Shown here piece after piece: positions 2,385 through 47,254 of a DNA stretch of 64,000 nucleotides (its first letter is position 1; each line of letters begins with the position of its first letter). Source of the DNA: a virus. Taxonomy: Duplodnaviria; Heunggongvirae; Uroviricota; Caudoviricetes. The stretch lies in IMG/VR virus record IMGVR_UViG_2675903433_000022; one strand, 5' to 3'. Below the pieces are notes generated by a model. That model was given only the letters and a program-made list of their open reading frames with translations, searched no databases and was not told where the DNA came from. Position numbers and translations under genes: made by a program.

Positions 2385-3215
2385 ATGAAGAAAGGTTTAC
2401 TTGCAGTTGCTCTGGCGGCTATTTGCACAATGGGTCTTACTGGCTGTGATCGCGTGGAGCCTGGATACGTTGGCATCAAAGTAAACAAATTAGGTGAAGA
2501 CAAAGGGATCGGTGAAGTGGTTGGCGTTGGTCGCCAATGGACAGGTCTTAACACCGAACTTTACGTATTCCCGACCTTCAAACAAATGAAGACCTACGAC
2601 GAGCCGTTCACATTCCAGATGAGTGACGGTACTGCTATTGGTCACAAAATTGGCGTTGCGTATCTGGTTAATCGTGACAAGGTAACGACGGTGTTCCAGA
2701 CCTATCGCAAAGGCGTAGACGATATCACCGAATCAGATCTGCGTCAGAAAATTGCCGACTCTCTAAACCGTTTGGCCAGCCGTATGACCACTGACTCATT
2801 TATCGACGGTGGTAAGGCACAATTGCTGGACAACGCACTGAAAGATATTCAGAAAGAGATGTCTCCGGTTGGTATTGAGGTACTGAGCCTGTCATGGGTT
2901 GGAAAGCCTGATTACCCAAAAACCGTCATTGAATCTATCAACGCCAAAGTAACGGCTAACCAGCGTACTCTGCAACGTCAGCAGGAAGTTGAACAACGTA
3001 AAGCTGAGGCGAATATGCTACGTGAACAGGCTAATGGTGAAGCTGATGCTATCCGTGCTCGTGCGCAAGCAGAAGCAGACGCCATTCGTCTGCGCGGTGA
3101 AGCTCTGCGTCAAAACCCGAACGTTATGGAGCTGGAAGCCATCAATAAATGGAATGGCCAGTTACCGCAGTACATGACTCAAGGGGCTAACACTCCTTTC
3201 ATTACAGTGAAATAA
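2385..3215 (+). CDS. SPFH/band-7 (stomatin/prohibitin-like) domain lipoprotein
   Basis: Signal peptide with lipobox LTGC; central region and Ala/Glu/Arg-rich coiled coil consistent with SPFH domain proteins. Confidence 0.7.
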   Translation: MKKGLLAVALAAICTMGLTGCDRVEPGYVGIKVNKLGEDKGIGEVVGVGRQWTGLNTELYVFPTFKQMKTYDEPFTFQMSDGTAIGHKIGVAYLVNRDKVTTVFQTYRKGVDDITESDLRQKIADSLNRLASRMTTDSFIDGGKAQLLDNALKDIQKEMSPVGIEVLSLSWVGKPDYPKTVIESINAKVTANQRTLQRQQEVEQRKAEANMLREQANGEADAIRARAQAEADAIRLRGEALRQNPNVMELEAINKWNGQLPQYMTQGANTPFITVK

Positions 3216-3233
3216 CTCTCTTTAAGAAGATCA

Positions 3234-3259
3234 GGCGTCCAGTTGGACGCCGTTTTATT
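3234..3259 (+). terminator. rho-independent terminator (GGCGTCC-agtt-GGACGCC + T run)
   Basis: Same stem sequence as the terminator at 2096; follows the SPFH gene stop. Confidence 0.6.
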
Positions 3260-3310
3260 CTCGTTATTAACACATACAAGAAAACAATTTGTTAAAAGGT
3301 AAAGTTAATT

Positions 3311-4135
3311 ATGCCCAACCACATTACAAACGAAATCCGAGTCATAGGTGGTACAAATAAACAACGCTTAGATTTCATACGTGCCATAACTAACAAAAAA
3401 GGTCTAATTGACTTTAATACCATTTGCAGACGTCCGAAAAGTATAGAAATGGAAGAAAACAATCATATCAGGCGCATGGCCTCTGCAATGGCGGGCGAAA
3501 CAGTTTACGACTACATGTTCGGTGAATTAAAGACTCCAGAACAGGTCGAATTAGCTATGCGTGAATCAGGAATGACACGCAAGGAAATTCGCAAAATCAA
3601 AGAGCAGGCTCTTATGCGGCTTGAGAATTATCGTCGCTATGGCTATTACTCATGGTTTGACTGGTCGCGAGCTAATTGGGGAACAAAATGGAATGCCTAC
3701 AACATCGAAATGCCCGTAAAACGTATCCCTACACGTATTAAGTACGGCCATAATTTCCGCCATACACACGTTCGAGCATATGCAAAACGAATCTATAAAA
3801 AACGTCTTGCAAGACATGCCGCAACTGGTGGTGAGTTGGTGATTCGCTTTGAAACAGCCTGGTCTATGCCAAAACCAATTTATCAAGCGATGGCTAGAAA
3901 GTTCCCGCACCTTGAGTTTGTAATACGTTATGCAGACGAAGACTTCGGCAATAACTGCGGACTCGTTTTACTTCGCAACGGCAAATGGGAATATGACTAC
4001 ATTGCACCGGCGAATAACGAACAATCGTCAGAAGAAAAAATCAAATGGCGCAAGTTCGCCTTTGAGTTATGTTGTCCTGGTATCACTCCACAAGAATACG
4101 GTCTAAATGAAGAATACGAATACGCCGGATATTAA
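3311..4135 (+). CDS. hypothetical protein
   Basis: Track ORF 274 aa; preceded by an AAACAAtTTGTT palindrome; Trp-rich segment YSWFDWSRANWGTKW; no assignable function. Confidence 0.6.
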   Translation: MPNHITNEIRVIGGTNKQRLDFIRAITNKKGLIDFNTICRRPKSIEMEENNHIRRMASAMAGETVYDYMFGELKTPEQVELAMRESGMTRKEIRKIKEQALMRLENYRRYGYYSWFDWSRANWGTKWNAYNIEMPVKRIPTRIKYGHNFRHTHVRAYAKRIYKKRLARHAATGGELVIRFETAWSMPKPIYQAMARKFPHLEFVIRYADEDFGNNCGLVLLRNGKWEYDYIAPANNEQSSEEKIKWRKFAFELCCPGITPQEYGLNEEYEYAGY

Positions 4136-5911: not shown

Positions 5912-6210
5912 TGAATATATACGATTTTTTTAAAAAACCTAACACATGTGTCAGAAAAGGGTATAAACCGTCAGTCATCGATTGCTGGTCGCTATCAGCA
6001 AATAATCTCAACAATGTATTCAAAATGCATTGGGAGTTTCTTTGTGAAGCGCGCGGCGTTCTCGACATGACAGTCAGAGAAGCAATTATCTGGATTCTTT
6101 GGTTTCCGGTAAGAACATTTATGACTCTGACGTACCCATTTACCTTCTGGATTTGGGGAACCGTCCTTTATTTCATATTAAAAGGAGAAGTAAAACATGG
6201 CAGCAATTAA
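5899..6210 (+). CDS. hypothetical protein with C-terminal hydrophobic segment
   Basis: Track ORF 103 aa; Trp/Phe-rich hydrophobic stretch IIWILWFPV..FWIWGTVLYFIL. Confidence 0.4.
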   Translation: MYRLMNIYDFFKKPNTCVRKGYKPSVIDCWSLSANNLNNVFKMHWEFLCEARGVLDMTVREAIIWILWFPVRTFMTLTYPFTFWIWGTVLYFILKGEVKHGSN

Positions 6211-6622
6211 GAAACTCTACGATGCCGCAAACGCGGCTCTGGATGTTATTGATGATGAAGTATCAAAAGGCTTTCCTGAACCTGATTGGGCGCATCAGCT
6301 ACGAAACGCTATCGCCGAAATGAATCCACCAGATCCGACCACCGACGAGACAGACTGGCAGCGATTTATCCGTATGTACGCTCAGGAAATAGGTCCAACG
6401 CCAACGGCAGAGCAAGCAATGCTGCTGAAATACTTCAAAGAGGCGGGAGAGGATTTACCAATTGATGACTCAGCATATTGGTTCCACTGCGCATGGCGTA
6501 AGTATGACGTGATATTCACACAAGGCATGGGGAGCAAAGATATGGTTGTGTGGCATCTACTCCATATAGACACAGCCGTTGACAGAGTTATTGAACAGTT
6601 TTTCCCTAACCAAGAAGATTGA
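6197..6622 (+). CDS. hypothetical protein
   Basis: Track ORF 141 aa; AAGGAG RBS upstream. Confidence 0.55.
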   Translation: MAAIKKLYDAANAALDVIDDEVSKGFPEPDWAHQLRNAIAEMNPPDPTTDETDWQRFIRMYAQEIGPTPTAEQAMLLKYFKEAGEDLPIDDSAYWFHCAWRKYDVIFTQGMGSKDMVVWHLLHIDTAVDRVIEQFFPNQED

Positions 6623-6677
6623 TCGCCTATTCATAACTAACAAAATAAGTAAACACTAACCACAAAAGGAAAAACAC

Positions 6678-6953
6678 ATGAGAGTTTTAGTTCGAATCGT
6701 TACCAGCACTGTCTATGACGTGTTTCCGCTTTTTATGGTCAAAGTCGATGGCCTTAACGACGAAGAAACTGACGCGCTGATCCAGCGTACTCTTGTTGAA
6801 TATACAGGTCATGACGCTGATTCAGTGATGGTTGATGATGATGGTGTTTGTTGGCATAACGGCAACTGTTGGTACGTAGAAGAGACTCAACAAATCAGTG
6901 ATGAAGATGCCGCACATCTTGAGCGTATTTTAAGCATTGGCACTTTTGAGTGA
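6678..6953 (+). CDS. hypothetical protein
   Basis: Track ORF 91 aa; conserved AAAAGGAAAAACACATG initiation context. Confidence 0.55.
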   Translation: MRVLVRIVTSTVYDVFPLFMVKVDGLNDEETDALIQRTLVEYTGHDADSVMVDDDGVCWHNGNCWYVEETQQISDEDAAHLERILSIGTFE

Positions 6954-6992
6954 GTTTACAGTAAAATTTATATAAGTTAGTATCTACCTATC

Positions 6993-7172
6993 ATGAAGAT
7001 TTTTATTGAATACTTGTTACTCATCGCTTCAATAGCTTTTGTCATCGACTGCATTTTCACTGGTGTCATTCGTAAAGTCTTTTCCCCGGTGAACGACGTA
7101 GTCATAAACGCTTTGGCTATCGTGCTCGTATTTAATTCAGCATTTGATGTAATCAAAGAGGTGGCAGCATGA
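6993..7172 (+). CDS. possible small hydrophobic membrane peptide, 59 aa
   Basis: Below track cutoff; stop overlaps the next start (ATGA); two hydrophobic segments. Confidence 0.3.
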   Translation: MKIFIEYLLLIASIAFVIDCIFTGVIRKVFSPVNDVVINALAIVLVFNSAFDVIKEVAA

Positions 7173-7504
7173 AGGCCATCCCATTTGCGCTGTTGTTCCT
7201 TTCTTCGATCGTTGTGGCCGACACCACTGTTTATCAGTGTGAAATGTCTGTAGCCGACGTTAAGAATGGCGCTCTTACCGACGTCATAAAAGCACCATAT
7301 GGAGCGATGGTCGTAGACAGCGGCGACCAGTTCTATGTTGTGCGTGACGATCGAGTGTTGTCATCCCCATATCTCACAAACCGTAATGGCAAATTAACCG
7401 GCGTCGGAGAAGACCACTTCGTATACAACAAATACAAGGGCTTCTATGGCGTTCACGCTTCTCAGCAAAGCTACCTTTTCGATGACTGCAAGGAGGTTGG
7501 ATAA
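7169..7504 (+). CDS. hypothetical secreted protein (N-terminal signal peptide)
   Basis: Track ORF 111 aa; hydrophobic N-terminus MKAIPFALLFLSSIVVA. Confidence 0.55.
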   Translation: MKAIPFALLFLSSIVVADTTVYQCEMSVADVKNGALTDVIKAPYGAMVVDSGDQFYVVRDDRVLSSPYLTNRNGKLTGVGEDHFVYNKYKGFYGVHASQQSYLFDDCKEVG

Positions 7505-7716: not shown

Positions 7717-7763
7717 ATGCAAACTGACTGCGGCACGTTCCGCAGTCATATTTCATAGTCGTC

Positions 7764-8296
7764 ACCGCTGACAGCATACACAATCAACTACCGCTGATAG
7801 CATATCGAGAGTCTATCTCACCGCTCACAGCATACTTTACTCGATTTTTTACCGCTGACAGCATACTTAAGACATTGCATGAATAATGTGTACCGGTATG
7901 GGTATAACCAGAACAAAATTACCGCTGGCAGCATACGAATGTCTGACATATGCCATTAATTACCGCTGATAGCATATCCAAACAAAAATTCCTCAATAAC
8001 ACACCGCTGACAGCATACGTTATATCAGGGAACAGCAGGCAATAAATGCCTTTCACTACAAGCAATCAGCGCAATAGCAATAGAATGTTAGTGAGCGCAA
8101 ACCTATATGGAATGCACTCTTCGAGGTTAGTAACCACTGGGGAGGTATGACAGAGCATTGAGTGGTGATAGATGATTTACCGCTCACAGCATACGTTCAT
8201 CTCACTATACCGCTGGTAGCATATCTTTAACCGTTCACAGCATACTTTTCAGAAAAATAGCCGCTGATAGCATACATTTCACCGCTGACAGCATAT
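7764..8296. repeat. iteron array, 12 copies of ~16 bp ACCGCTGACAGCATAC-like repeat (incA-like)
   Basis: Copies near 7764, 7790, 7820, 7851, 7921, 7962, 8003, 8179, 8209, 8230, 8260, 8281 with minor variants; abuts the 3' end of the RepA-like gene. Confidence 0.85.
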
Positions 8297-37538: not shown

Positions 37539-37895
37539 TTATGAGCGTAAATTATTAGCGGATTTTAAGCCATATTCACCGTTATAGTAATTACTCGCGT
37601 TCCATTCATTGGGAAGCTCTTGTCTGTCCAATGTATAGTGGCGCACGATGTAACGACCTGCATCTTCTTCGAGGTACAGGCGGACATAGCCAATGTGAAT
37701 TACCGGTATGGGCGGCGTTCGTATTGCATAGATGTCGCGGAGATATACCGGTAGCTCGACAAATGCATCAGGTGCATCTGTGATGCTCGTTTTTTCACAG
37801 TATTCATATAACGCATCGTTGATATCGTTAAGGGATTCATGATCGTATATTTCCAGGTAATTACCCCGATCGCGATGGTACTCGATTTTAGCCAT
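37539..37895 (-). CDS. hypothetical protein
   Basis: Track ORF 118 aa, minus strand, directly downstream of 37896..38480. Confidence 0.5.
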   Translation of the reverse strand: MAKIEYHRDRGNYLEIYDHESLNDINDALYEYCEKTSITDAPDAFVELPVYLRDIYAIRTPPIPVIHIGYVRLYLEEDAGRYIVRHYTLDRQELPNEWNASNYYNGEYGLKSANNLRS

Positions 37896-38480
37896 TCAAA
37901 ATCCCCTATTATCGTTTTGCATTTCTCTAATCCGGTCCAGAACAACTTCATGTTGGGCTTGGATAGCGGCTTTTTCGTTTTCAAGCCGGGCAATAGACTT
38001 CTCTAATTCTTTGCTGTACCAGGCAAGTTGGGTAAGGTTCATCCGGTTGTGATCGAGAGTTGGCGACACCTCGACGTGATCCCCTTCTTCCTGCCTTAAT
38101 GAGAAGAGATTCATCTCATCCCTTGAGGAAAATTCAGCAACAATTTCTTGTTGATGATCCGGTCGCTGCGGCATCCTTGCCAGTATAAATGGCGGTTCTA
38201 TTGAAAACATGAATGACGGTTTAGACCGTGTTTTGACCCATCTAGCTTGCTGTCTTTCGGCAAGTTCACAGGCTTCATCATAGTTATCTACAAAACCAAG
38301 CACGGATGGACGGTCCCACGCGCCACCATTCAGACAATAAACAACAATTTTCCCGTCAGGTTCTGTAACTCCATAGGGATGGTCCCACCAGGCGTCCAGC
38401 TGGGCTTTGGAGCGTTTCTCGTTAGGAGTGCAGTCAAAATTTTTGGGCAATGCAGGATCGAGAGGAATGCGGGCAGGCAT
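37896..38480 (-). CDS. hypothetical protein
   Basis: Track ORF 194 aa; divergent from the UmuD-like gene across the LexA-box region. Confidence 0.5.
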   Translation of the reverse strand: MPARIPLDPALPKNFDCTPNEKRSKAQLDAWWDHPYGVTEPDGKIVVYCLNGGAWDRPSVLGFVDNYDEACELAERQQARWVKTRSKPSFMFSIEPPFILARMPQRPDHQQEIVAEFSSRDEMNLFSLRQEEGDHVEVSPTLDHNRMNLTQLAWYSKELEKSIARLENEKAAIQAQHEVVLDRIREMQNDNRGF

Positions 38481-38614
38481 GGCTAATTCCTTATTAATTG
38501 ATTAGTAACGAGGTTACGCTGATCCAGCGGTGATGAATAGTAGCAAAGCGCACAAAGTCATCAGAGGGGTTAAGACCCATAACGCGTTTGCACCAAAGGT
38601 GCATCTTTAATGTA

Positions 38615-38634
38615 TACTGTATGGATAAACAGTA
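38615..38634. promoter_or_regulatory. LexA (SOS) box
   Basis: TACTGTATGGATAAACAGTA fits CTGT-N8-ACAG; about 20 bp upstream of the UmuD-like start in a divergent promoter region. Confidence 0.7.
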
Positions 38635-38652
38635 TTTTGAGGTGAAAACGCT

Positions 38653-39042
38653 ATGGGCTTCCCTTCTCCTGCGGCGGATTATGCTGAGAGCCGTATTTCT
38701 CTTGATCAGCAGATAATTAGACATCCTTCAGCGACCTACTTCATGAGGGCAGCTGATAGCCATCATCGTGAGGGAATATTACAGGGTGCATTGCTGGTGG
38801 TCGATTCCTCACTTACCCCGGTTGATGGTTCTCTGCTTGTATGCGCTCTGGATGGGGAATATCGCGTAAAAAGATACCGGAAGTATCCACGTCAGCATCT
38901 GGAGGATTTAAGAACCGGTAAGAAGGAAGCATTGCCAAAGGATGACGATGGATGCACGGGCAGCAATGCCGTGTTTGGTGTGATCACTCACATTATCAAC
39001 GACGCAAGAAGTGGCGAGTTTGATGATTGTCCCGTGATGTAG
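38653..39042 (+). CDS. UmuD'-like (HumD-like) S24 peptidase-family protein
   Basis: Starts MGFPSPAADY, i.e. at the position equivalent to the post-cleavage N-terminus of UmuD (C|GFPSPAADY); HPSATYF and Ser/Lys dyad region conserved. Confidence 0.8.
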   Translation: MGFPSPAADYAESRISLDQQIIRHPSATYFMRAADSHHREGILQGALLVVDSSLTPVDGSLLVCALDGEYRVKRYRKYPRQHLEDLRTGKKEALPKDDDGCTGSNAVFGVITHIINDARSGEFDDCPVM

Positions 39043-39079: not shown

Positions 39080-40180
39080 TCACACTGCGCGGAATGCGAT
39101 TTCGCCAGGTATTACTTCACCTTGCCAATACATTTGGGCAGCAACGCGATCTGCGAGGTCACGATAAATAGCCGTAAATTCGCTATCTGGACGACTAATA
39201 ACGGTTGGTGTTCCGTTATCCAGATCTTCACGAAGAGAGATATGAAGTGGCATTTGGCCTAACAACTGCGTGTTGTATTTCTCGGCCAGTTTCTGTGCGC
39301 CACCGGTGCCAAAAATTGGCTCGTGATGACCGCAGTTACTGCAAATATGCATACTCATGTTCTCGACAATACCGAGCACCGGAACCTCGACTTTCTCGAA
39401 CATCACAATGCCTTTTTTCGCATCGATCAACGCGATGTCCTGCGGCGTAGTTACCACAACCGCACCAGTTACAGGAATGTTCTGCGCCAGCGTCAATTGA
39501 ATATCACCAGTGCCCGGCGGCATATCGAGAACGAGATAGTCCAGATCAGGCCATAGAGTTTCCTGCAACATCTGCATTAACGCCTTGCTCGCCATCGGAC
39601 CACGCCACACCATCGCATTGTCGTCAGTTACCAGATAACCAATTGAATTGGTTGCCAGTCCATGAGACATAATCGGTGCCATGTGAGTACCGTCCGGTGA
39701 GGTTGGACGTTGGTTTTCCGCGCCAAGCATGGTTGGAATTGATGGCCCGTAGATATCGGCATCCAAAATACCAACTTTCGCACCTTCAGCAGCCAACGCC
39801 AGTGCCAGGTTTACCGCCGTGGAGGATTTACCAACGCCGCCCTTGCCTGAGCTGACGGCGATAATGTTCTTAACGCCATTAATGCCTGGTTGGTTTTTGA
39901 CGCGCTTAAGCGTGGCAATGTTGTACGACAGCTTCCAGTCGATAGCCTTTGCGCCAGTGATACGGAGCAGATCACCACTACATTGCTCTTTCAGGTCTTC
40001 AAAAGGCTTATTCCACACGAAAGGCATGATTAGTTCGACATGCAGTGTGTCATCCATCAACGCAACATGGTGTAACGCTTTAAGCGTAGTCAGGTTGTGT
40101 TTCAGGGTTGGGTGCTGAAAATTAGCCAGCGTACCGGCTACCATTGCTCTCAGGGCATCCGGCGATTTGGACTCGCTCAT
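39080..40180 (-). CDS. apbC: Fe-S cluster carrier ATPase Mrp/ApbC
   Basis: 366 aa; deviant Walker A SGKGGVGKS; reads as near full-length enterobacterial Mrp by recall. Confidence 0.9.
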   Translation of the reverse strand: MSESKSPDALRAMVAGTLANFQHPTLKHNLTTLKALHHVALMDDTLHVELIMPFVWNKPFEDLKEQCSGDLLRITGAKAIDWKLSYNIATLKRVKNQPGINGVKNIIAVSSGKGGVGKSSTAVNLALALAAEGAKVGILDADIYGPSIPTMLGAENQRPTSPDGTHMAPIMSHGLATNSIGYLVTDDNAMVWRGPMASKALMQMLQETLWPDLDYLVLDMPPGTGDIQLTLAQNIPVTGAVVVTTPQDIALIDAKKGIVMFEKVEVPVLGIVENMSMHICSNCGHHEPIFGTGGAQKLAEKYNTQLLGQMPLHISLREDLDNGTPTVISRPDSEFTAIYRDLADRVAAQMYWQGEVIPGEIAFRAV

Positions 40181-40337
40181 CCCGTCTCCTTTATTTTAAT
40201 TTGCGCAATTGTCGCCTTGTAGTGTACTCCAGCTACGGCATTTAATCATTTATGAGAAATGCTGTTATCACATGGCAGACATAAGGCCATTTTGTTACTA
40301 TCAAGCCCCTTTTCACTACAAAGAAGTAATGCCTACT

Positions 40338-42371
40338 ATGACCCAAGTCGCGAAGAAAATTCTGGTGACGTGCGCGCTGCCGTACGCTAACGGCTCAATC
40401 CACCTCGGCCATATGCTGGAGCACATCCAGGCTGATGTCTGGGTTCGTTACCAGCGAATGCGCGGCCACGAGGTTAATTTCATCTGTGCCGACGATGCCC
40501 ACGGTACGCCGATCATGCTGAAAGCACAGCAGCTTGGTATCACACCGGAGCAGATGATTGGCGAAATGAGTCAGGAACACCAGACTGATTTCGCAGGCTT
40601 TAACATCAGCTATGACAACTATCACTCGACGCACAGCGAAGAGAACCGTCAGTTGTCTGAGCTTATCTATACTCGCCTGAAAGAGAACGGTTTTATTAAA
40701 AATCGTACCATCTCTCAGCTGTACGACCCGGAAAAAGGCATGTTCCTGCCGGACCGTTTTGTAAAAGGCACCTGCCCTAAATGTAAAGCGCCAGATCAAT
40801 ACGGCGATAACTGTGAAGTCTGCGGCGCGACTTACAGCCCGACTGAACTGATCGAGCCGAAATCGGTAGTTTCTGGTGCTACGCCGGTAATGCGTGATTC
40901 CGAACACTTCTTCTTTGATCTGCCTTCTTTCAGCGAAATGTTGCAGGCATGGACCCGCAGCGGTGCGTTGCAGGAGCAGGTGGCAAACAAAATGCAGGAG
41001 TGGTTTGAATCTGGCCTGCAACAGTGGGATATCTCCCGTGACGCACCTTACTTCGGTTTTGAAATTCCGAACGCGCCGGGCAAATATTTCTACGTCTGGC
41101 TGGACGCGCCGATTGGCTACATGGGTTCCTTCAAGAATCTGTGCGACAAGCGCGGTGATACCACCAGCTTCGATGAATACTGGAAGAAAGACTCCACCGC
41201 CGAGCTGTACCACTTCATCGGTAAAGATATTGTTTACTTCCACAGCCTGTTCTGGCCTGCCATGCTGGAAGGCAGCAACTTCCGCAAGCCGACCAACCTG
41301 TTTGTTCATGGCTATGTGACGGTGAACGGCGCAAAGATGTCCAAGTCTCGCGGCACCTTTATTAAAGCCAGCACCTGGCTGAATCATTTTGACGCTGACA
41401 GCCTGCGTTACTACTACACTGCGAAACTCTCTTCGCGCATTGATGATATCGATCTCAACCTGGAGGATTTCGTTCAGCGCGTGAATGCCGATATCGTGAA
41501 CAAAGTGGTTAACCTGGCCTCCCGTAATGCAGGCTTTATCAACAAGCGTTTTGACGGCGTGCTGGCAAGCGAACTGGCTGACCCGCAACTGTACAAAACC
41601 TTTACTGATGCCGCTGAAGTGATTGGTGAAGCATGGGAAAGCCGCGAATTTGGTAAAGCGATTCGTGAAATCATGGCGCTGGCTGATCTGGCTAACCGCT
41701 ATGTCGATGAACAGGCTCCGTGGGTGGTGGCGAAGCAGGAAGGACGCGATGCCGATCTGCAGGCGATTTGCTCTATGGGCATTAACCTGTTCCGCGTGCT
41801 GATGACGTACCTGAAACCGGTACTGCCGAAACTGACTGAACGTGCAGAAGCATTCCTGAATACAGAACTGACCTGGGATGGTATCCAGCAACCGCTGCTG
41901 GGCCATAAAGTGAATCCGTTCAAGGCACTGTATAACCGTATCGATATGAAACAGGTGGAAGCACTGGTGGAAGCATCCAAAGAAGAAGTGAAAGCCACAG
42001 CTGCACCGGTAACTGGCCCACTGGCTGACGACCCGATTCAGGAAACCATCACCTTTGACGACTTCGCCAAAGTTGACCTGCGTGTGGCGCTGATTGAAAA
42101 CGCGGAGTTTGTCGAAGGTTCTGACAAACTGCTTCGCCTGACGCTGGATCTCGGTGGTGAAAAGCGTAATGTCTTCTCAGGCATCCGTTCCGCTTATCCA
42201 GATCCACAGGCACTGATTGGTCGTCACACCATTATGGTGGCTAACCTGGCTCCGCGTAAAATGCGCTTCGGTATCTCTGAAGGCATGGTGATGGCTGCTG
42301 GCCCCGGCGGGAAAGATATCTTCCTGTTAAGCCCGGATGCTGGTGCTAAACCTGGCCACCAGGTTAAGTAA
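40338..42371 (+). CDS. metG: methionyl-tRNA synthetase
   Basis: Track ORF 40209..42371, true start ATG 40338 (MTQVAKKIL); HIGH-type motif [14 protein letters not shown], zinc knuckles CPKC/CEVC and C-terminal tRNA-binding domain. Confidence 0.95.
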
Positions 42372-42869: not shown

Positions 42870-43055
42870 ATGCTTAAAGAAGACTCATATCTACTAAAGG
42901 CGCTTGAAATGCGTGGCGTTGAACCTACAGTGAAAAACGCTCACGATATCTACCTTCAGTTTTCGCCAGAGCTGAAACAGCTCATAAATAAATATGGAGT
43001 GAATGACTCCAGCGTCAAAGCCATGATAGATGATGAATTAGACCATCTCATCTAA
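42870..43055 (+). CDS. hypothetical protein
   Basis: Track ORF 61 aa. Confidence 0.35.
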   Translation: MLKEDSYLLKALEMRGVEPTVKNAHDIYLQFSPELKQLINKYGVNDSSVKAMIDDELDHLI

Positions 43056-43189
43056 CCAAACCGTTGATAATGGCGGTCACAATTTGATTCTTTTCTATAA
43101 GAATCCGTTGATCGCCACTACTCCCCTTCCATACCTGCAATCATATCCTTAAATATCAATAGGTTATAGTTGTTTGCACAAACAAGAAA

Positions 43190-43930
43190 ACAACTGAATA
43201 ACAGATCAACGAAACGTCAACGCTTTCTCCCGATTTGGTCTAAAAAATTGACGTTTTCACACATCACTTCTTATACCCGTAATTCTACGCAGCAGATAGC
43301 GCCACAGCGTTCAATTTTCACCACAGACGACTCAACACACTACCAACAAAAACACACGCTCAAAATCGCTCCCGTTGCGTTACACAACCATATAAACAAC
43401 TTATTTTCAGGTATAACAAAACAACTAAATAACACATACGCCATTACCAAAAACAACCAACCTCTTTATGGCAGGCTACCGAAAAGACCCACCTCTTCTT
43501 CCCAGGCTACCGGACAGCCAACCTAACTTTCACAGGCAATCCGAAAACATTCATACGCGCGATACCCACGACACGCCATTACCCAAACATCGAAGAAACA
43601 CCAGAATCACTGAAACCCCAACGAAGTCTGTAACCGCAAGGCTTCTCTCAATCCCAAAAGACACGAAACATAACAATCACGGGAAACGCCATTACCCAAT
43701 ACACGAATAACTACAAAAGCCCTTCACACACTCCAGACAAACAACTCAAACACAATAACGAAAGGAATAGCCCACCTGCCATTACTCCATATACGGAGAA
43801 GAACAATAACCATAACGACGAGAACACCCCATAGAAGAACCACCGCAAAACGAACGAAACCACATACACCGACAGAGAAAACAACACACCCAATCCACCA
43901 ACAGAAATAGTCGCCCTATAGAACGTTCTG
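43190..43930. repeat. strand-asymmetric A/C-rich, G-poor noncoding tract with internal repeated modules
   Basis: About 740 bp with almost no G runs on the plus strand; recurring ACGCCATTACC(C)AA and CAGGCTACCG..CCACCT units; track ORFs here are low-complexity artefacts. Confidence 0.5.
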
Positions 43931-44119
43931 GTAGGAGTGAGCATTAACGCCTATAGAGAGGTTGAGACAGATAAAACACGAAGAAAACACAACATGTATA
44001 GCGAAGAAGCCAGGTATGTATAAGTGGGGAGGGAAGGAGGGGTGTCGCCTCCTTTTTCGTATTTATTCAACTCCTGATTTTATCCCCCGTAACACCCCTA
44101 CGGTCAGCCTTCGGTCCAT

Positions 44120-44265
44120 ACAGGGAAAAGGTTGCATCCCGCTACAGAAACGGCTGGATTGCCTTCGGGGAACGGCTGGAGGTTTTCAGGGAAACGGTCG
44201 AGCTGCCTTTGTGGATTTCGGGAAAAGGCTCGATGCCGGTTCAGGAACGGTGGCGTACCGGTATA
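44120..44265. repeat. tandem ~22-bp repeats with GGGAAACGGC core (about 6 units)
   Basis: Units CAGGGAAAAGG.., CAGAAACGGCTGG.., GGGGAACGGCTGG.., GGGAAACGGTCG.., GGGAAAAGGCTCG.., GGAACGGTGG.. Confidence 0.6.
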
Positions 44266-44612
44266 GCGAGAGAGAGTTGCGGCTACCCACCTGTAATGTG
44301 CGGTAAGAAGAGAGGCGCTCACGTGCAGGCGAACTTACTTACCGCTGGATTCCCTCTGAATGCCCAGCTACAGCGTAATTGTGCCAGACAGTCAGCGGGT
44401 CACAATCGATTTCAGTAGGTTTTCGGGGAGGGGATTATTCTGCCCACCAGCCATCTTCGGCCATTAAATCAGAATAATGTAAAAAGTGTACTCGGTACTG
44501 AACCTGAAAACTCACTGCCAAAACCACATTCACCGGAATAAAATCCTTTTTAGCCTTTGCGTTATTGCGATAATAACACCATCAAGAAAACATGTTGTTT
44601 AAGGATTGCTTT

Positions 44613-46046: not shown

Positions 46047-46421
46047 ATGGGACTTGATATCTATATCGAGACACAGCCTAAAAACGATCTGAATAACGAG
46101 GCATCCAGAAAGCAGGTTGCTTACTTCCGTAAGTTCAATGCGCTCGTTGGGTGGATGGAGCGCAACGTAGGTGAAGTCGAAAATTGTGAGCTTTTAGAAT
46201 TAACGATGAATGACATTTGTTTTCTGAAGGCTCATTTGATGCACATAAACGAAAGTAATTGCGAAGAGTACTTGCCTACCCGGGAAGGCTTTTTCTTCGG
46301 CAGTCAGGAGTACGATGAAGGTTACTGGCATGACGTGGACAAGCTGAAAAAACTTGTGGAAGACCTGATCAGGAACCACGACTTTCACAATAACAGACTG
46401 ACGTTCTGCGCCTGGTGGTAA
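46047..46421 (+). CDS. hypothetical protein
   Basis: Track ORF 46005..46421, ATG 46047 after AAGGAAA. Confidence 0.5.
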   Translation: MGLDIYIETQPKNDLNNEASRKQVAYFRKFNALVGWMERNVGEVENCELLELTMNDICFLKAHLMHINESNCEEYLPTREGFFFGSQEYDEGYWHDVDKLKKLVEDLIRNHDFHNNRLTFCAWW

Positions 46422-46771
46422 ATATGGGCGATTTCAAGAAACGCCTGAAGGAAAGAGCCGAGATGGTCAGAAAGCAAAACGCCTCTTCTGTCATCAGATA
46501 TGCAAGGCAGTTTAGTCGCAACAACAAATCAGTTGAGGAAAAGATCCTTAGCGTAATCGGGCGATAATTATTAAGGCCATCAGCATTGGTGGCCTTAAAT
46601 GACCATCCTGTTTCCCGCAGGCTAAAAACACCAACCTCTTACCTCCAGGCAACCGACAAACCCACCTGTTCCCGTCCGGCTACCGCAACTTTCCACTTTG
46701 ACGCCTTATTCGTACAACGATAATTAACACCAACAAGAAAACAATTTGTTATTTACGATAAGGAATTAATC

Positions 46772-47254
46772 ATGAATTTTATCGCTACTGTAAACGCACC
46801 CGCACATGGCAATATCGTTGTAACGTTCTCTGACATTGAAAAACGAGTACTTGGTGCCTGGCGTCACAATGAGACGGTAGAACTGTCAGAACAAGAAAAA
46901 TGCATTATTTCACGCGACATCATTGGCAATCGTCGTTACTCGCGGGTATTTGAGAAAGCGTATGTGGTAAATTCTGGATTCGGAACGTTCGTCTTTCCGG
47001 TGCGCTCCGGGCGATTCTGCCAGTCCAAGCTGATTGAGTTCGCTACGCAGATTTCTGTCTGGATTAAAACTCAATCGTCGTTCAAATTTTCCGACGATGA
47101 AGCAGTATCGCAGGGGATGCGGATCGCCAACAATGCGATTAAATGCAAAAACATTACGTATACCGCTGGCGTTGATACATGGAAACTGTTTTGCGCTAAC
47201 TTTATGCTGAATGTATACGCAAGCAACCGCATCCACATCCTTGATGGCGTGTAA
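46772..47254 (+). CDS. hypothetical protein
   Basis: Track ORF 160 aa after an AAACAAtTTGTT palindrome. Confidence 0.5.
   Translation: MNFIATVNAPAHGNIVVTFSDIEKRVLGAWRHNETVELSEQEKCIISRDIIGNRRYSRVFEKAYVVNSGFGTFVFPVRSGRFCQSKLIEFATQISVWIKTQSSFKFSDDEAVSQGMRIANNAIKCKNITYTAGVDTWKLFCANFMLNVYASNRIHILDGV

Follow-up and report, generated by a model that had tools for sequence, protein, structure and literature searches.

The question raised by this locus is what an unannotated and strongly strand-asymmetric segment of about 0.8 kb does in the genome of a tailed phage. The DNA is a 64,000-nucleotide stretch of a caudoviricete virus (IMG/VR record IMGVR_UViG_2675903433_000022), called the window over its full 64 kb, and the term tract is used for its A/C-rich segment 43110-43930 (+); an earlier inspection of the letters, the sequence-only reading, had singled out the interval 43190-43930. 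The answer favoured here, tentatively, is that the tract, which borders a cargo hot spot on its right side, could well be a zone of Rho-dependent termination or insulation.

As for the element that carries it, the region has 92-97% identity with the Escherichia phages Cyrano, PhiR41_1 and CMS-2020a, and 65-73% identity with Salmonella phage SSU5 and pHCM2; hundreds of IncFIB plasmids of ~110 kb from Klebsiella, Enterobacter, Salmonella, Citrobacter and Cronobacter also match it, again at 65-73% identity. Because the region matches those phages and the IncFIB plasmids, the window is assigned by sequence similarity to an Escherichia coli phage-plasmid of the SSU5 family, of which it is a part. 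The literature searched on SSU5, pHCM2 and phage-plasmids does not mention the tract region.

Regarding its composition, the segment had been described as G-poor, A/C-rich and strand-asymmetric, and the recomputed skew bears this out. The plus strand of 43190-43930 contains 39.4% A, 31.3% C, 12.4% G and 16.9% T, against 28/22/24/26% in the whole window; G is depleted, as claimed, to about half and not to the near absence that had been stated, and T is depleted too. Over the 821 nt of the tract, C is 30.8% and G 12.3%, with a C/G ratio of 2.5, and A and T amount to 39% and 18%. The two 500-nt bins of the tract have GC skews of -0.37 and -0.33 and are the only strongly negative bins of the window, AT skew rises up to +0.52, and A+C peaks at 0.76 per 300 nt, about six standard deviations above the window mean (0.50, standard deviation 0.04). 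This is the strongest strand asymmetry within the 64 kb, and the left edge of the element reaches further than the sequence-only reading had placed it, to about 43060-43110. When 78-nt frames are slid along the DNA, the longest C>G run of the whole window is 43000-43965; 707 frames have a C/G of at least 2.5, 421 of them in the tract and 79 at 46560-46760, and YC dimers number 13.6 per 100 nt in the tract vs 9.8 in the window.

The tract is non-coding. A conserved translated open reading frame (ORF), which would have spoken against the sequence-only reading, was looked for in the relatives and none was found; protein coding was rejected, since stop-free frames vary among relatives and are interrupted by indels whose lengths are not divisible by three. 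The longest of these frames, 227 codons in pHCM2, has no methionine; the scarcity of T on one strand and of A on the opposite one explains why both strands have long stop-free frames. Pfam and PHROG gave zero matches for the ORFs between 43060 and 44590, and every flanking ORF matches a PHROG; three-base periodicity of the variable alignment columns is absent from every 180-nt window across the 1.5-kb region, and the start signals in 43110-43930 amount to one ATG, zero GTG and two Shine-Dalgarno-like tetramers.

An RNA read from the plus strand would also be almost free of structure: between 43300 and 43900 the predicted folding energy is -7.7 to -18.7 kcal per 200 nt, the least foldable stretch of a window with a mean of -50.6 (standard deviation 8.9), and the minus-strand RNA of the tract has ordinary foldability. 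The fifth least foldable plus-strand stretch is 46596-46689, where some of the repeats described below recur. Rfam returned no match for the tract at E ≤ 1, and a conserved RNA fold on its minus strand is unsupported (541 columns, consensus -39 kcal, covariation term -6); RNAalifold with ribosum scoring gave inflated values on both strands, which were disregarded.

Rho-dependent termination, of which lambda tR1 with its rutA and rutB elements is the classical case, requires Rho utilisation (rut) RNA that is C-rich and G-poor over at least ~80 nt, unstructured and untranslated, and the tract RNA has all three properties. Three further features bear on where transcripts end:

43071-43117, plus strand: two-tier stem-loop without a U tract, a candidate hairpin protecting RNA 3' ends, 16 nt past the stop codon of ORF 42870-43055.
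46571-46598, plus strand: second stem-loop without a U tract, 4 nt past the stop codon of ORF 46415-46567.
44031-44058, plus strand: hairpin with a T run behind it, at the tract's 3' end, resembling an intrinsic terminator in this clade (-19.4 kcal/mol, z -2.2).

The stem-loop at 43071-43117 has a predicted energy of -19.1 kcal/mol (z -3.9) and that at 46571-46598 of -22.4 kcal/mol (z -4.1); for each, 0 of 200 shuffles were equally stable. The outer 9-bp stem of the first is invariant across 9 relatives, its inner stem differs between E. coli (GAUUCUU/AAGAAUC) and Salmonella (GGAUUU/GAGUCC), and its counterpart is weak in Klebsiella. Both loci have the same layout, in which a stop codon is followed by the stem-loop and then by C-rich, G-poor, unstructured RNA almost free of start codons. 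Dar and Sorek (2018, PMC6061677) described E. coli Rho-dependent transcripts with stable stem-loops that lack a U-rich follow-on and have rut sites immediately downstream, the stem-loops protecting the trimmed 3' ends. The arrangement of a U-tract-less stem-loop directly before a rut-like RNA is found at both loci, and the tract is like those terminators (PMC6061677) in that its RNA is untranslated, has C>G, is unstructured, lies just past such a stem-loop and is co-directional with the upstream gene, and in that RNA signal, judged from gene-level data, seems to be lost at its stem-loop.

The last point comes from Misson et al. (PMC9928086, supplementary file 2), whose re-analysed LF82 RNA sequencing (RNA-seq) data cover Cyrano, 97% identical here. 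CYRAN_102, termed a moron, ends where the conserved block begins and reaches up to log2 9.2 (PMC9928086); CYRAN_103, a spurious ORF that starts 111 nt downstream of it and is the equivalent of window positions 43170-43526 (357 nt), has log2 values of 2.3-4.3, at or near the floor, in 10/10 samples, and it stays near the floor while the downstream small genes go up about 30-fold in macrophage samples (PMC9928086). Transcription, which the sequence-only reading had left to be checked by RNA-seq, is in these gene-level values at or near floor level over the first part of the tract. An intrinsic-terminator-like site was found neither from the upstream gene to 44031 in the window nor at the equivalent place in Cyrano; in the Salmonella relative, an intrinsic terminator is absent from the plus strand across the whole 1.6 kb, and the 44031-44058 hairpin is weaker (z about 0) and without the T run in Salmonella and Enterobacter. 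Because the Cyrano signal drops at the stem-loop without an intrinsic terminator, transcription or RNA survival therefore seems to end there, as far as gene-level data can tell, without a recognisable terminator of that kind.

Taken at the sequence level, the tract matches every property of a Rho terminator that was tested, and among the three options of the sequence-only reading (a rut-like site, a protein-binding array or an untranslated RNA) the first is the best supported, by the C>G bias, the lack of structure, the untranslatability, the stem-loop and the drop in RNA-seq signal; its conservation and repeats, examined below, exceed those of a plain rut site. If the tract works in this way, ribosomes would leave at the stop codon of the upstream gene, Rho would load onto the naked C-rich RNA and free RNA polymerase inside the tract, and exonucleases would trim the RNA tail back to the stem-loop, steps that we infer from established Rho biology. 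Read-through from any inserted upstream cargo would thus be kept out of the downstream early genes, and the short stretch 46571-46689 would act likewise on a smaller scale.

The genes flanking the tract are all on the plus strand in the window, and likewise in nearly all relatives, and the A/C-rich strand is the one coding for them. The left neighbours change with every relative (metG/apbC in the window; DUF4145, GIY-YIG, DUF262 and insertion sequence (IS) elements elsewhere), the small genes on the right are constant, and the relatives always have the tract between a variable cargo island and these conserved small early genes; the hot spot, with its defence, resistance and metabolic cargo, ends exactly at the tract. 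A near-identical plasmid annotated with PGAP has repA ~36 kb to the left of this region; on the other side come a repressor-like regulator, after ~5 kb, and the terminase, after ~13 kb. An insulator at this point would let the lysogen express arbitrary cargo without switching on the early genes, would explain the tolerance of the site to insertions, and would make the tract a core and so far unannotated regulatory part of the SSU5 family, whose phage-plasmids are often met with in clinical E. coli, Klebsiella, Enterobacter and Salmonella.

The tract is widely retained. A bipartite profile, ~0.8 kb with 12-18% G followed on the same strand by ~0.25 kb with 35-42% G, is present in 13/13 relatives, and these 13 keep the composition and orientation of the tract with identities of 62-74%, except for two near-identical E. 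coli phages. Counts of plasmids with the tract and with the terminase gene are 224 and 206 in E. coli, 90 and 91 in Enterobacter, 49 and 49 in Salmonella, and 25 and 25 in Citrobacter; the tract is kept in essentially every enterobacterial SSU5-like plasmid with a terminase gene.

This conservation, together with several other observations, weighs against a simple Rho terminator. A plain rut site depends on composition and not on sequence, and here the sequence itself is kept across genera: between clades, tract identity is 62-73% vs 45% (maximum 49%) for composition-matched shuffles; the adjacent small genes have 49-67% over their whole length, values that the tract equals or exceeds, and four-fold degenerate sites are far below it, both in TerL (31-47%) and in the adjacent small genes (24-52%). 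As identity exceeds that of shuffles and of four-fold degenerate sites, the tract thus appears to be under sequence-level purifying selection, although it may instead have been exchanged more recently than its neighbours. Its 0.8 kb far exceeds the length of known rut sites, at about ten times the typical value, and unlike Rho terminators it contains internal promoter-like and operator-like sites and is built of specific direct repeats, namely GCCATTAC units and a three-copy 31-nt module (module A). Conservation of the GCCATTAC-headed repeats and of module A goes further than Rho loading would demand. Transcripts would also be initiated within the tract by the conserved promoter-like element at 43248-43277, and in Klebsiella the gene just upstream is oriented away from the tract. 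Finally, the Cyrano RNA-seq consists of gene-level values from another laboratory and from lysogens only, and the literature searched held no Rho-inhibition data (bicyclomycin, rho/nusG mutation) for this element.

The same conservation makes it very improbable that the tract is a functionless, decayed array of duplicated A/C-rich units at a recombination boundary. The tract does resemble a set of direct repeats that have degenerated and vary in length, a recombination hot spot has its edge there, and truncated copies stand beside DUF262 genes in large Klebsiella plasmids; these points are countered by its retention in essentially all the terminase-bearing plasmids just counted, by an evolution far slower than that of synonymous sites, and by a composition that is stationary across clades. 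In K. pneumoniae pBckp186 (positions 3001-3470) and in Klebsiella plasmids of ~190-245 kb, only the first ~450 nt of the block (43062-43512) are left, adjoining a DUF262 gene and IS elements in a non-phage context, which suggests that the left part of the tract travels with this defence gene.

As for the repeats, two families are distinguished within the tract, and one of them recurs downstream:

43438-43812, plus strand: array of four direct degenerate repeats, each with a GCCATTAC head (at 43440, 43575, 43688 and 43778).
43450-43545, plus strand: module A, three tandem copies of ~31 nt (ACCnACCTCTT..CAGGCTACCG), the third degenerate, present in 14/14 related loci that cover the position.
46596-46689, plus strand: second locus, three tandem copies of module A spaced by 28 and 30 nt (C 39%, G 13%).

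The sequence-only reading had counted four copies of one unit. The core GCCATTAC does have four copies in the tract (and 7 in the whole window, counting both strands, vs 2.0 expected); the unit ACGCCATTACC is present three times (43438, 43573 and 43686), with no other copy on the plus strand of the window, and the fourth copy, at 43776, is the variant CTGCCATTACTCC. Beyond the head, (G)CCATTAC(Y), three copies share the long form GCCATTACyycAtAyrCGGAGAAgAAC. The check across relatives that the sequence-only reading proposed found 4-7 GCCATTAC-headed repeats per relative, 41-144 nt apart and in a single orientation, with GCCATT[AC]C occurring 4-5 times vs 0.0-0.1 expected from shuffles, and module A at every one of the 14 loci. 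The related ~90-bp module noticed downstream was confirmed at 46596-46689 with its three module A copies; the third copy is degenerate at both loci, and this second locus is directly upstream of the promoter of ORF 46772-47254. The pattern ACCTnTT-N5-CnGGCnAC matches at 43460, 43491, 46634 and 46664 (four true matches and one unrelated) vs 0.23 expected. A scan of viral contigs for module A gave >100 loci, of which the true matches looked like fragments of the same family; by our own estimate, its 15-base pattern is expected to match by chance at that scale.

These repeats, with the sequence conservation, leave room for a protein- or factor-binding component beside the rut-like reading; a protein-binding array was among the options of the sequence-only reading. 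In its full form, this explanation would have the tract act in cis as DNA: proteins would bind an array of repeats (GCCATTAC, module A and the 22-bp units of a neighbouring G-rich array) that works for the phage side of the element, for example as a lytic replication origin or another nucleoprotein assembly site. The G-rich array is the following:

44121-44265, no strand assigned: G-rich array (35% G) of six direct units of ~22 nt, CAGGGAAAmGG..., conserved in all relatives.

Its units are spaced by 23, 21, 22, 31 and 22 nt in the other E. coli lineage, the last four values being identical in Salmonella, and an RNA fold of the array has no covariation support; in its layout it looks like an iteron array. 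With the iteron arrays of RepFIB and the octamers of the P4 ori/crr, the tract shares short direct motifs in non-coding DNA and an adjacent G-rich array with ~22-bp spacing. A DNA site is further favoured by direct repeats that share one orientation and are far above chance, by the iteron-like 21-23-bp spacing next to them, by a dense sequence constraint in DNA that has neither coding capacity nor RNA structure, and by the silence of the region in lysogens. Yet if the site were duplex DNA, the conserved strand asymmetry of the sequence between the motifs, over 0.8 kb, would be left without a reason, the GCCATTAC spacing is irregular (41-144 nt), and there is neither a conserved AT-rich unwinding block (GC is 40-45%) nor an adjacent initiator gene, the iterons of the element's own RepA (TYACCGCTGACAGCATAC, 11 copies) being unrelated and 35 kb off. 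By its spacing, its distance from repA, its lack of a conserved AT-rich block and the case of pMT1, the tract does not qualify as an iteron-type origin, from which its strong strand asymmetry also sets it apart.

pMT1, a stably maintained relative from Yersinia pestis, has lost everything between the nrd genes and the small early genes, tract included; it is maintained without the tract, and therefore plasmid replication and partition do not need it. The loss of the tract along with phage replication genes also counts for a DNA site. In pMT1, an IS1541 copy at 37884-38751 stands in place of ~30 kb of SSU5-type backbone, which comprises nrdAB, thymidylate synthase, DHFR, Dam, RNase H, cargo, the tract and several small early genes.

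A distant relative, Acinetobacter baumannii p5626, has at 5930-7280 an unannotated 1.3-kb tract with 45% A and 13% C, in which units resembling TATAGAAATGTAGAAA occur six times and AACAGGTATAAGGA units twice; with the terminase gene 13 kb downstream of it, its relative position equals that of the E. coli tract. Because it is A-rich and C-poor, the Acinetobacter tract is not rut-like. A repeat-rich, unannotated tract equally far from the terminase gene would, if analogous, favour a DNA site, a point reduced by its low C and by its unproven homology to the E. coli tract. On balance, a cis-acting DNA site is an unlikely explanation. Related identities were rejected: a RepA origin or incA-like locus, as the iterons are unrelated, and a P1-type parS, which is absent. 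The region next to repA, 7762-8296, contains eleven copies of the 18-bp iteron TYACCGCTGACAGCATAC and is presumably the plasmid origin and copy-control region.

Returning to the favoured Rho-dependent terminator or insulator, the promoter-like and operator-like sites within it bear on whether its action might be regulated:

43215-43277, no strand assigned: divergent promoter-like pair with inverted -35 boxes (position weight matrix scores 7.0-8.7), at the same aligned positions in 8 relatives.
43394-43406, no strand assigned: copy of an operator-like palindrome, AAACAAnTTGTTT, which is the perfect TAAACAAGTTGTTTTC in other clades.
3282, 17607, 27860, 28589, 29303, 37453, 42457, 42508, 43394, 44588, 45073, 45975, 46739, 55853 and 55878, no strand assigned: sites of this palindrome.

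The leftward element of the pair has TTGACG as the reverse complement of 43215-43220, and the rightward one has TTGACG at 43248-43253, an 18-nt spacer and TATACC at 43272-43277; the -35 boxes form a 9-bp inverted repeat (AAACGTCAA / TTGACGTTT), and hexamers and spacing are kept across clades while the spacer sequence varies. The palindrome AAACAAnTTGTTT, extended as AAGAAAACAAnTTGTTT, has 21 matches in the window vs 6.25 expected, in two placements: about 10 nt past the GATAAT-type -10 box of small plus-strand genes, or covering the -35 where an extended -10 promoter directly follows a terminator hairpin. Each downstream small gene has its own promoter with the AAGAAAACAAnTTGTTT palindrome, which, from this distribution, looks like the operator of a family-wide early-gene repressor.

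A regulated attenuator of the lambda nut/tR1 type would combine these elements: Rho would stop transcripts in the tract, starting at the promoter-like site 43248-43277 or upstream, and a phage or host factor bound to the RNA modules would lift termination in the lytic cycle, the CCUCUU(U)A of module A being likened to boxA, GCUCUUUA. The conservation of a promoter-like element and of the family operator palindrome inside the tract argues for it, as do repeated modules that are conserved in sequence on an RNA with no other features; in lambda tR1, too, boxA is found together with A/C-rich rut sequences. Of the parts of a nut site, the CCUCUU core occurs in most module A copies, the match to boxA covering 5/6 core bases and being exact (CUCUUUA) in one copy only; a boxB-like hairpin is absent, and the RNA is predicted to be unstructured. 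Also against an attenuator, the downstream small genes each have a promoter and operator to themselves, which leaves no obvious need for read-through; the neighbouring proteins yielded no antiterminator candidate, and the tract stays at background while the downstream genes rise 30-fold in macrophage samples. Such an attenuator is decidedly unlikely.

The untranslated RNA of the sequence-only reading has its counterpart in a functional long non-coding RNA of the lytic cycle that would sequester, as a decoy or sponge, Rho, Hfq, CsrA, G/U-rich small RNAs (such as GcvB) or single-strand RNases. An extremely unstructured and untranslatable RNA on one strand only, a promoter-like start and a clade-specific terminator-like end bounding a unit of ~0.8 kb, and the constraint on its sequence are in keeping with this, and like the sponges CsrB/RsmZ (GGA motifs) and CrcZ (A-rich motifs) it would be a long non-coding RNA with many single-stranded copies of short motifs. 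Unlike them, it has no enrichment of the defining motifs: GGA occurs 4-11 times vs 5-9 expected, AAnAAnAA 0-5 times vs 1-2, and neither A-R-N runs nor ACA-type contexts are enriched over shuffles. It also has no Rfam match, its terminator-like end is not conserved in the Salmonella clade, and its RNA is not abundant in the only transcriptome at hand, being at background in 10/10 lysogen samples. This explanation is held to be quite improbable.

Several specific partners were rejected along the way. A Hfq, CsrA or Crc sponge fails for lack of motif enrichment, and a MazF-type ACA decoy because the enriched k-mers are not of the ACA type and CAAC is under-represented. Pairing with the R1 sequence of GcvB gave 54 low-energy sites vs 51.5 ± 3.6 in shuffles, a comparison that is weak either way; pairing with the rRNA or tRNA of the rrnH operon was no better than shuffles, and a search for an antisense partner elsewhere in the window matched only operator motifs. 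A type III toxin-antitoxin system was rejected too, the neighbouring proteins having no ToxN-like match in Pfam, PADLOC or NCBIfam; compared with the ToxIN layout, a promoter instead of a terminator stands between the tandem modules and the next gene, and a ToxIN-like reading of these modules fails because the neighbouring proteins match nothing in PADLOC or NCBIfam, databases that also gave no defence genes among them.

What remains to be accounted for, if a Rho-dependent terminator or insulator is the right answer, is the excess of sequence over function. The length of the tract, its gene-like conservation, the repeats, module A, the promoter-like pair and the operator-like palindrome together suggest a sequence-specific partner, and the GCCATTAC repeats and module A probably bind a specific factor that tunes or exploits the element. 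A bolder version, in which the tract is a dedicated, sequence-specific RNA platform of novel design, an unstructured, untranslatable and A/C-rich RNA of 0.8 kb whose repeated GCCAUUAC units and boxA-like modules are read by a phage-plasmid or host factor, switching Rho termination on and off or trapping Rho in the lytic cycle, seems rather unlikely; if true, it would link the early genes with the block of cargo and replication genes in >800 sequenced enterobacterial plasmids. The length, conservation and repeats of the tract make it a test case of whether sequence-specific control modules can form part of Rho-dependent terminators.

Some minor observations concern the surroundings. The Chi octamer GCTGGTGG has 15 exact copies in the 64 kb, ~1 per 4.3 kb, and 85 matches vs 37 expected at one mismatch; one exact copy, at 44444-44451 (minus strand), falls in conserved non-coding DNA immediately to the right of the G-rich array, and a Chi cluster was rejected as an identity for the tract, the octamer being frequent across the window and not clustered in the tract. 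ORF 42870-43055 (61 aa, phrog_11467) faintly matches, below threshold and over no more than residues 2-18, the RecBCD inhibitor family of T7 gp5.9 (E 0.006). Host-type cargo at 39080-42371 comprises full-length apbC (mrp) and metG (methionyl-tRNA synthetase); a UmuD/LexA-like S24 peptidase and DNA polymerase III theta are likewise borne by this plasmid family, and the Cyrano lysogen expresses the S24 peptidase gene and apbC.

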